Made by a program: the position numbers. This document shows positions 15,601 through 18,600 of a stretch of 64,000 nt of DNA, one piece after another (positions within the stretch are counted from its first letter, which is position 1; the number at the start of each line of letters is the position of its first letter). Where the stretch lies: the NCBI RefSeq assembly GCF_056746865.1, contig NZ_CM163382.1. One strand, given 5' to 3'.

Positions 15601-18600
15601 CAATGCTTTCTGGAATATACCGCCGAGAATGCGAATTAAGATCCCCATCACACCGATGTAGTAGAGAATACTCACCAGTGCTGTAACGAAGATAATTGCC
15701 GGTAATACCCTGAAACCAAAGATAAATCCAGCGCCATCAAATAAGGTGTCCATTTTCGGTCCGACCAGAGAACCAAAGATAAATGCGCTACCCGCGTCGC
15801 TGTACGCCATCACTTTATGCACGCCAAAAGCGACTTTTTCAGCGACCCAACGCCCTGGCGGTAACCAAAGCATAATGCCGCCAATCACGACCTGTAACAC
15901 TAACGCCGCGCCAACGGTACGCAGGCTGATCTTCTTCTTGTTTACTGACAGCAAAAACGCAATTGCCAGCAATACCACCATTCCCAGAACACTTCTCATG
16001 ACATCCATAGTTATTATCTCTTCATGTCATTTTGGGCGACGGCTTTCTGCCCATCAGAAATAGCCGGGCCTGCATCTTGCGATACTGACCCGGCTTGTTA
16101 TCAACACTTAATGGGTTTTGATGTAGCCGCGCACGCACTCTTCGACTAATCCCCAGAACCAGTCGGTATCAATAGTGATGCCGACTTTGGTATTAGCGGG
16201 CTTGCCAAGAACGCCCAGCTCGTCGCAGACAGTACGCCCATAGCAAGGGCCACTGAACCGCCCCGGAAATCCTGGAGACTAAACTCCCTGAGAAAGAGGT
16301 AAACAGGATGACTAAAAATACTCGTTTTTCCCCCGAAGTCCGTCAGCGGGCGATTCGTATGGTTCTGGAAAGTCAGGATGAATATGACTCACAGTGGGCG
16401 GCAATTTGTTCCATTGCCCCAAAGATTGGCTGTACGCCGGAGACTCTGCGTGTCTGGGTTCGCCAGCATGAGCGGGATACCGGGGGCGGTGATGGTGGGC
16501 TCACCAGCGCTGAACGTCAGCGTCTGAAAGAGCTGGAACGTGAAAATCGTGAACTGCGCCGCAGTAACGATATCCTTCGCCAGGCTTCCGCTTATTTTGC
16601 GAAGGCGGAGTTCGACCGCCTCTGGAAAAAATGATGCCACTGCTGGATAAGCTGCGTGAGCAGTACGGGGTCGGACCGGTATGCAGCGAACTGCATATTG
16701 CCCCGTCAACGTATTACCATTGTCAGCAACAGCGACATCATCCGGATAAACGCAGTGCCCGTGCGCAGCACGACGACTGGCTGAAGAGAGAGATACAGCG
16801 CGTATACGATGAAAATCATCAGGTGTACGGTGTGCGTAAAGTCTGGCGTCAGTTGTTACGGGAAGGAATCAGGGTGGCCAGATGTACAGTGGCACGTCTC
16901 ATGGCGGTTATGGGACTTGCCGGTGTTCTCCGGGGTAAAAAGGTCCGTACGACCATCAGCCGGAAAGCCGTTGCCGCAGGCGACCGCGTAAACCGTCAGT
17001 TCGTGGCAGAACGACCTGACCAGCTGTGGGTGGCTGATTTTACTTACGTCAGCACATGGCAGGGCTTCGTCTATGTGGCGTTTATCATTGATGTGTTTGC
17101 CGGATACATCGTGGGGTGGCGGGTCTCATCGTCTATGGAAACGACATTCGTGCTGGATGCGCTGGAGCAGGCGTTGTGGGCCCGTCGTCCGTCTGGCACC
17201 ATCCATCACAGCGATAAAGGCTCTCAGTATGTGTCACTGGCCTATACGGAGCGACTAAAAGAAGCCGGATTACTGGCATCAACAGGGAGTACAGGCGACT
17301 CGTATGACAACGCGATGGCTGAGAGCATCAATGGTCTTTACAAAGCGGAGGTAATACACCGTAAGAGCTGGAAAAACCGTGCAGAAGTGGAACTGGCCAC
17401 ACTAACGTGGGTGGACTGGTATAACAATCGACGATTGCTGGGAAGGCTGGGCCATACTCCTCCGGCAGAAGCAGAAAAAGCTTATTATGCTTCCATCGGA
17501 AACGATGATCTGGCAGCCTGAGTTCACAGATAAAACACTCTCCAGGAAACCCGGGGCGGTTCACACTGTTGACGTCCACTTCGACGTACATCTCCTGGGT
17601 TTTAATGCCATCAGGGTTAATCAGATAACCGATGCAGGTGGCGTCATGCACCGGGCCGCCAGCCAGGCCGTAGTTTTCGAACTGCGTTTTTAGAGTGAAA
17701 TTCATGATGTCGCTGAACAGCTCTCCGGCGGGGCCGCCTACCCTTTCCATCCGGGCAATCACGTCCGGGGTGCAAACAGTCTGGTTGGTGAGATCGAGGC
17801 CCATCATCACCAACGGAACGCCGGAGGTGAACACCACGCGTGCGGCTTCCGGGTCGGCAAAGATGTTGAACTCGGCAGATGGGGTGAAGTTGCCTGTACC
17901 GTAAGCGCCGCCCATTAGCACAATTTCACGGATTTTCGGCAGGATCGCGGGTTGCATACGCATTGCCACCGCGATATTTGAAAGCGGACCAACCGGCACC
18001 AGAGTGATATCACCATCGCTTGCCATCAGGGTATCAATGATATATTTCACCGCATGAGTGCTTTCTGCCTGGCGGGTCAGCGGCCCGAATACCGGGCCAT
18101 CAAGTCCGGTTTCACCGTGAATATTATCGGCAACGATTTGTTGACGCATAATGGGCTGTGGCATCCCCGCATAAACCGGAACATTAATCTCCAGTTTCTG
18201 GCAAACATTCAGGCCATTAATTAATGTTTTATCAAGCGTCTGATTACCCGCCACAATGGTGATGCCTAATAAATCAATCACCGGATGTTTCGCGGCCATC
18301 ATTATGGCAATAGCATCATCATGACCCGGATCACAATCCAGAATAATTTTTCTCTTTTCCATTGTTTATTTCCTCTGTTTCCAGTTGCGTTATTTTTTCT
18401 ACAGCAAAGAAAATTCGACCGGGCCGATGATTGAATCTTAACAACAGCGTAAGTATGCTAAATATGAGAAATCTCATAGCGGATAAACATCGTGAAAGAA
18501 ATCCACAATAATGATCTTAAGCAGCAATTGATGAGTGAATCCGCGTTTAAGGATTGCTTTTCAACGGATGTTTCAGCCGATACGCGGCTGTTTCATTTTT

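Follow-up and report, generated by a model that had tools for sequence, protein, structure and literature searches.

What is the segment that divides rihB in this stretch of DNA, how did it arrive there, and does its arrival matter to the host? Our analysis of the window (the whole 64-kb stretch of DNA) leads to one reading, to which we assign a probability of roughly 95%: an intact IS629 element of the IS1203 isoform transposed into rihB at codons 266/267 and duplicated the trinucleotide CAC, in a recent event restricted to one strain or a narrow clone, and left rihB a pseudogene. The evidence for each part of this reading, and the alternatives that compete with it, are given below.

The inserted segment is a 1310-bp unit flanked by a 3-bp target-site duplication

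Sequence reading and a script place the IS element at positions 16254–17563 (1310 bp), with TGAACCGCCCCGG opening at 16254 and CCGGGGCGGTTCA closing at 17563. The element and the features at its edges are as follows.

16251–16253, no strand: left copy of the target-site duplication, CAC (the empty sites of ST69 and K-12 hold one CAC)
16254–17563, plus strand: complete IS629/IS1203 element, 1310 bp (100% match to IS1203-family copies)
16254–16278, plus strand: left terminal inverted repeat (IRL), 25 nt, with a 5'-TG start (repeat finder and script)
17539–17563, plus strand: right terminal inverted repeat (IRR), with a CA-3' end (repeat finder and script)
17564–17566, no strand: right copy of the target-site duplication, CAC (sequence, script, and empty-site comparison)

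The initial annotation had described a 1310-bp segment with imperfect inverted repeats, two overlapping transposase ORFs, and CAC on both sides, and its coordinates are confirmed. Specifically, the repeat finder pairs the 25 nt at 16254–16278 with the 25 nt at 17539–17563, which match at 22 of 25 positions (88% complementary); pairing is perfect over the outermost 13 nt, with every mismatch further inward. The tips of the element read TGAACC...GGTTCA, that is, TG...CA, and both the length and the ends are those of an IS3-family element (about 1.2–1.55 kb, inverted repeats with TG...CA).

A 3-bp match between two flanks has by itself a 1 in 64 chance of arising at random, and empty sites were used as the proof of duplication. 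In an O15:H18 strain of ST69 (NZ_CP102488.1), the empty site reads GGGCCAC followed by TGTTGACG, with a single CAC and an intact rihB. The same chromosome holds GGGCCACTGTTGACG with one CAC, and shows zero mismatches to the window over 4000 bp leftward and 22,434 bp rightward. The empty target site in K-12 MG1655 is identical and likewise has a single CAC. Because the uninterrupted sites of ST69 and K-12 MG1655 both hold a single CAC, the CAC repeat is a true 3-bp target-site duplication, and its length falls within the short range of 3–4 bp reported for IS629 (PMC3271280).

The literal direct repeat is longer than CAC, reading CACTG at 16251–16255 and 17564–17568 because the element opens with TG, and the BLAST alignments to the ST69 empty site overlap by 5 bp. 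These two observations would fit a mobile unit of 1308 bp (16256–17563) with a 5-bp CACTG duplication. However, a sequence-identical copy in O157:H7 PV15-279 has the same first and last bases (TGAACC start and GGTTCA end) between unrelated flanks and an AAG duplication, which refutes the shorter boundaries and fixes those of the 1310-bp unit. Furthermore, matches in hundreds of genomes span positions 1–1310, and TG...CA tips with duplications of 3–4 bp are known properties of IS629 (PMC3271280). The probability left to the 1308-bp unit is negligible, and the boundaries used below are those of a 1310-bp element with a CAC duplication.

The element splits rihB after codon 266

On the minus strand, the sequences on either side of the element belong to a single gene, and a hybrid ORF runs from its 5' portion into the element.

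17564–18362, minus strand: 5' portion of rihB, codons 1–266 and the first base of codon 267 (ORF and script)
16108–16253, minus strand: 3' remnant of rihB, comprising the final 47 codons with the TAA stop (rejoined ORF)
17328–18362, minus strand: hybrid ORF of 344 aa, comprising 266 RihB residues and then 78 residues antisense through the IS end (ORF finding and script)

Deletion of the element and one CAC in silico restores a 313-aa minus-strand rihB ORF, as the initial annotation had stated in saying that the frame rejoins exactly, and ST69 and K-12 provide the matching empty sites. The duplicated CAC takes in the last two positions of codon 266 and the first of codon 267, the transposase genes are antisense to rihB, and the two halves of rihB carry no further lesions.

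The rejoined protein matches the equivalog model NF007417 over positions 1–313 of 313 at 722.8 bits (cutoff 459), matches PDB entries 1Q8F (E 4e-212), 3B9X, and 3MKM, and differs from K-12 RihB at 3 residues. The gene order, nupX-rihB-yeiL, is that of K-12 and ST69. By equivalog match and synteny, the interrupted gene is identified as the one for RihB, the pyrimidine-specific ribonucleoside hydrolase. We infer that truncation of this compact single-domain enzyme results in loss of RihB function. When the exact sequence of the 344-aa RihB-IS hybrid was looked up, no gene with such a product was on record; the test is weak, since contigs from short reads end at IS termini and PGAP would annotate such a gene as a pseudogene.

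IS copies are a classic cause of assembly errors, and the assembler could in principle have misplaced the element by repeat-collapse or mis-join, with rihB intact in the real genome. A mis-join, however, would not yield a precise 3-bp target duplication, and the gene halves abut the exact IS termini and rejoin in frame. An artefact of this kind is exceedingly improbable, and we treat the split in rihB as a genuine insertion.

The element encodes a two-ORF transposase with a predicted frameshift

The transposase genes and the signals between them lie on the plus strand.

16308–16634, plus strand: orfA, 108 aa, helix-turn-helix (HTH) DNA-binding part of the transposase (HTH_Tnp_1 PF01527, E 1.6e-10)
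16589–16705, plus strand: ALIL frameshift-stimulating pseudoknot (Rfam RF01497, 121.5 bits)
16626–16631, plus strand: A6 run directly 5' of the orfA UGA stop, a slippery site of the A_AA.A type (candidate −1 frameshift site)
16631–17521, plus strand: orfB, 296 aa, DDE catalytic domain, −1 frame with respect to orfA (NF033516 and rve PF00665)

The two ORFs overlap by 4 nt and stand in frames 0 and −1, which is the two-ORF arrangement of the IS3 family, and the exact orfA sequence is present on at least 1000 contigs. Placement in the IS3 family, as first proposed, is borne out by the proteins. OrfB scores 316.3 bits against NF033516 (NCBIfam IS3 family transposase; cutoff 160), and the fused OrfAB contains the domains HTH_Tnp_1, HTH_21, and rve (PF00665, E 6.3e-26). 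The catalytic residues of OrfAB are D244, D303, and E339, with a D-D spacing of 58, a D-E spacing of 35, and a K at +7 from E. Family models and residues together define a DD(35)E transposase of the IS3 family with an RNase-H fold.

The end of orfA reads ...UGG AAA AAA UGA, and orfB begins at the final A of the A run. The heptamer in the 0 frame is G_AAA_AAA, and the slippery motif is therefore effectively an A_AA.A tetramer abutting the orfA stop. Such tetramers serve as slippery motifs in IS1- and IS3-family elements (PMC4066793). The downstream ALIL pseudoknot covers model positions 1–117 of 117, its 121.5 bits comparing with a gathering score of 50, and the O157:H7 copy of identical sequence bears the same annotation. 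When a −1 slip is placed on the last AAA, translation gives a 404-aa OrfAB that matches exactly an NCBI protein, 'IS3 family transposase', present on 158 contigs. In RefSeq, an identical copy is recorded as a joined CDS with a 'programmed frameshift', whose start and stop coincide with those found here. The element thus carries both parts of a programmed −1 frameshift signal, the A6 run and ALIL, and frameshifting itself is predicted.

The element is identified as the IS1203 isoform of IS629

Many E. coli copies to which RefSeq gives the name 'IS3-like element IS1203 family transposase' agree with the element at 100% over all 1310 bp. In 3,042 of 5,426 complete E. coli genomes there is a copy that spans 80% or more of the element, at up to about 50 places per genome. 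The identical copies lie on chromosomes and on plasmids, and most carriers in the plasmid collection are conjugative. On Shigella sonnei pSS_046 (NC_007385.1, 33848–35157), a copy of full length aligns with no gaps and shows 51 substitutions, an identity of 96.1%.

According to Rump et al., IS1203 is an isoform of IS629, and the subtypes, of which the Shigella type is one, diverge by about 4% (PMC3271280); the 96.1% identity to the S. sonnei copy fits this rough subtype divergence. The IS629/IS1203 name used here is based on the RefSeq/PGAP annotation of identical copies and on the 96.1% identity to the Shigella copy. The lineage had initially been assigned as IS629/IS1203, and the comparison refines that assignment: by its sequence, the element is the IS1203 isoform of IS629, rather than Shigella-type IS629. 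No second copy of the element, full or partial, was found within the 64-kb window, and the donor copy must lie outside it.

The host is ST69-like E. coli and the insertion is probably recent

The window is colinear with the chromosome of the ST69 O15:H18 strain, with the IS as the only structural difference, and outside the element 4 SNPs in 62.7 kb separate the two. On its right-hand side, the adjoining 22.4 kb are 100% identical to many E. coli chromosomes. The flanks are 97.5–98.4% identical to K-12 MG1655 over the same genes, as against the 4 SNPs that separate them from ST69. These comparisons support assignment of the host to ST69-like, phylogroup-D-type E. coli outside K-12. The initial annotation had reached the same placement outside K-12 on the ground that K-12 does not carry this IS type, and the absence of IS629 from K-12 is stated in two sources (PMC3271280; bioRxiv 10.1101/2023.06.07.543989). 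Shigella was weighed as a possible source, given that IS629 is an element of Shigella and that the junction was missing from the E. coli genomes searched; the near-complete identity of the window with chromosomes of ST69 E. coli led to its rejection.

A 400-bp left-junction probe, at a coverage of at least 80%, detected the rihB::IS junction in 0 of the 5,426 complete E. coli genomes, a set that includes near-identical relatives (100% over the adjacent 22.4 kb; an ST69 strain 4 SNPs away) and that, like the other collections searched, is without the source genome itself. A junction 28-mer had 0 matches in metagenome contigs, although absence from short-read collections is weak evidence, assemblies usually breaking at IS ends. 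A full-text literature search returned no paper mentioning IS629 together with rihB.

The same observations bear on the possibility that the insertion is an old, lineage-defining pseudogenisation common to a large clade. Such an origin is very unlikely: close relatives are among the complete genomes in which the junction is absent, many other copies match the IS without a single difference, and the duplication is perfect while the rihB halves are otherwise unbroken. Zero divergence from other copies, a perfect duplication, undamaged gene halves, and absence of the junction elsewhere argue for a recent insertion. Together with the lack of a second copy in the window, they sustain the original proposal of a recent, simple transposition, and they support its restriction to this strain or to a narrow clone.

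Proposed route of transposition

The steps proposed here are modelled on IS3-family relatives. OrfA would be made by normal translation, while a minority of ribosomes would slip by −1 at the A6 run that ends orfA, stimulated by ALIL, and would yield the 404-aa OrfAB DDE transposase. OrfAB would then copy the donor element out as a circle, from a copy on the chromosome or on a plasmid. The circle would be pasted into the target at staggered 3-bp cuts, and repair of these cuts would produce the CAC duplication. The outcome would be a rihB pseudogene without its last 47 residues. Production of OrfAB via −1 frameshifting, and use of a copy-out-paste-in pathway by the IS3 family, have been described (bioRxiv 10.1101/2023.06.07.543989). 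A plasmid donor is plausible, because identical copies are common on conjugative plasmids.

Consequences for the host

In E. coli, rihB is reported to be physiologically silent, yet induced in AI-2-conditioned medium; uridine and cytidine are normally recycled via nucleoside phosphorylases, with RihA as a further enzyme of RihB's class (PMC2898832). A review (PMC10526354) makes no mention of rihB expression. Because rihB is reported silent and recycling proceeds via phosphorylases, with RihA as a second enzyme, the insertion is most likely neutral or nearly so. For the same reasons, namely the reported silence of rihB and the normal use of phosphorylases in pyrimidine nucleoside recycling, a growth assay on uridine or cytidine is unlikely to reveal an effect as long as the redundant pathways are in place.

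Selection for the insertion, through RihB loss or through altered or polar nupX expression, is an alternative to neutrality that would add to, rather than replace, the explanation by recent transposition. Downstream of rihB, nupX is co-oriented and 99 bp apart, so that a polar effect on its transcription is conceivable, and within IRR, on the strand in the sense of rihB, a scan found a weak hairpin resembling a terminator; a polar effect is, at this stage, speculation. A consensus scan of 15900–18500 returned zero sigma-70 promoter sites, and on the minus strand returned no terminator-like site between rihB and nupX, the scan reporting consensus matches only and having no bearing on co-transcription of rihB and nupX. 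Against selection, rihB is reported to be physiologically silent, with RihA, RihC, and the nucleoside phosphorylases redundant to it (PMC2898832), and the insertion does not recur in other genomes. We consider selection quite unlikely. A further conjecture, that rihB::IS1203 marks an emerging ST69 subclone in which RihB loss or altered nupX changes modified-nucleoside scavenging in the host, is more doubtful still; if true, it would be a pathoadaptive, IS-driven regulatory change.

Under the preferred reading of a recent and most likely neutral transposition, no strong phenotype is expected, rihB being reportedly silent in laboratory conditions and backed up by RihA, RihC, and nucleoside phosphorylases. 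This is a known element in an ordinary IS3-family insertion into a non-essential gene, and nothing in the element is novel. The rihB insertion site itself was not encountered in the 5,426 genomes or in the literature searched. The importance of the insertion is small and lies chiefly in strain typing: as a clean and recent marker, it could set this isolate or clone apart from other E. coli that are ST69-like. It is in addition a sign that an IS1203-type element, best known from EHEC, is active in an ST69-like background or was recently delivered to it, possibly by a conjugative plasmid.

Comparison with known systems

The interrupted gene resembles rihB (yeiK) of E. coli K-12 (PDB 1Q8F) in its rejoined length of 313 aa, its nupX-rihB-yeiL synteny, and its identical target sequence. 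It differs from K-12 rihB in being split after codon 266 of 313, and the 344-aa hybrid lacks the native C-terminal 47 residues.

The element shares with IS3411, IS911, and IS3 the arrangement of orfA and orfB in 0/−1 frames, a poly-A slippery site, TG...CA ends, an ALIL-type downstream RNA stimulator, and DD(35)E chemistry (PMC4066793). Unlike those elements, it has a six-A run acting as an A_AA.A tetramer at the orfA stop, and not a canonical A_AAA_AAG heptamer. Compared with IS629 of S. sonnei pSS_046, it is alike in length (1310 bp), colinearity, and organisation, and unlike at the 51 substituted positions.

The closest known system is IS1203, which is abundant in O157:H7, O111, and O26 and on IncF-type plasmids. 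This IS629 isoform was first described in E. coli O111:H-, and the element in the window has the same 1310 bp at 100% nucleotide identity, with the same ORFs, ALIL pseudoknot, and 3-bp duplications. The element itself shows no difference from IS1203; only the host background, which is ST69-like and not EHEC, and the site in rihB differ.

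Strain background of the window

Outside the IS629 element, only four SNPs across the entire window separate it from E. coli O15:H18 strain ST69 (NZ_CP102488.1), a relative in which rihB is intact. Two of these SNPs are in cirA, with 27 bp between them, and yejF and yejO carry one each:

7811, 7838, 40905 and 51451, SNPs relative to ST69

Because these are the sole differences besides the IS, the source strain is ST69-like and is absent from the searched set of RefSeq complete genomes.

Genes surrounding rihB and other chromosomal features

The rihB-yeiL pair is flanked on either side by a gene for a NupC-family transporter, and Rfam identifies two further features in the window:

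14742-16026, nupX, NupC-family transporter gene
18492-19190, yeiL ORF, 232 aa, GTG start
19242-20526, psuT, NupC-family transporter gene
45645-45670, L25 (rplY) ribosomal-protein leader
49386-49459, tRNA

The nupX and psuT genes are ancient paralogues that still share ~80% DNA identity, and BLAST therefore reports them as a dispersed repeat. The RefSeq annotation of yeiL in the ST69 strain agrees with the ORF in the window (232 aa, GTG start), whereas the K-12 annotation places the start later, giving a 660-nt CDS; this discrepancy in length is a difference in start-site annotation only. Both the leader and the tRNA are normal constituents of the chromosome and lie where they would be expected; the ST69 relative's annotation gives the latter as tRNA-Pro.

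Sequence features of IS629

The S. sonnei plasmid pSS_046 carries a full-length IS629 (33848-35157), in addition to a 130-bp leftover of the right end of IS629 (3218-3347, 92% identity), which adjoins phoN2.

Within the right inverted repeat of the element in rihB, there is one weak terminator-like feature, identified by consensus match only:

17542-17554, minus strand, hairpin with a 5-bp stem followed by a T-rich tail

In this orientation, the hairpin could potentially halt transcription that runs into the IS from the rihB promoter.

The putative frameshift site (16626-16634) contains a run of six A, read in the 0 frame as the heptamer G_AAA_AAA. This run directly adjoins the UGA stop codon of orfA. 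With this heptamer next to the stop, the site is predicted to act as an A_AA.A tetramer type, rather than as the canonical heptamer A_AAA_AAG of IS911-like elements.
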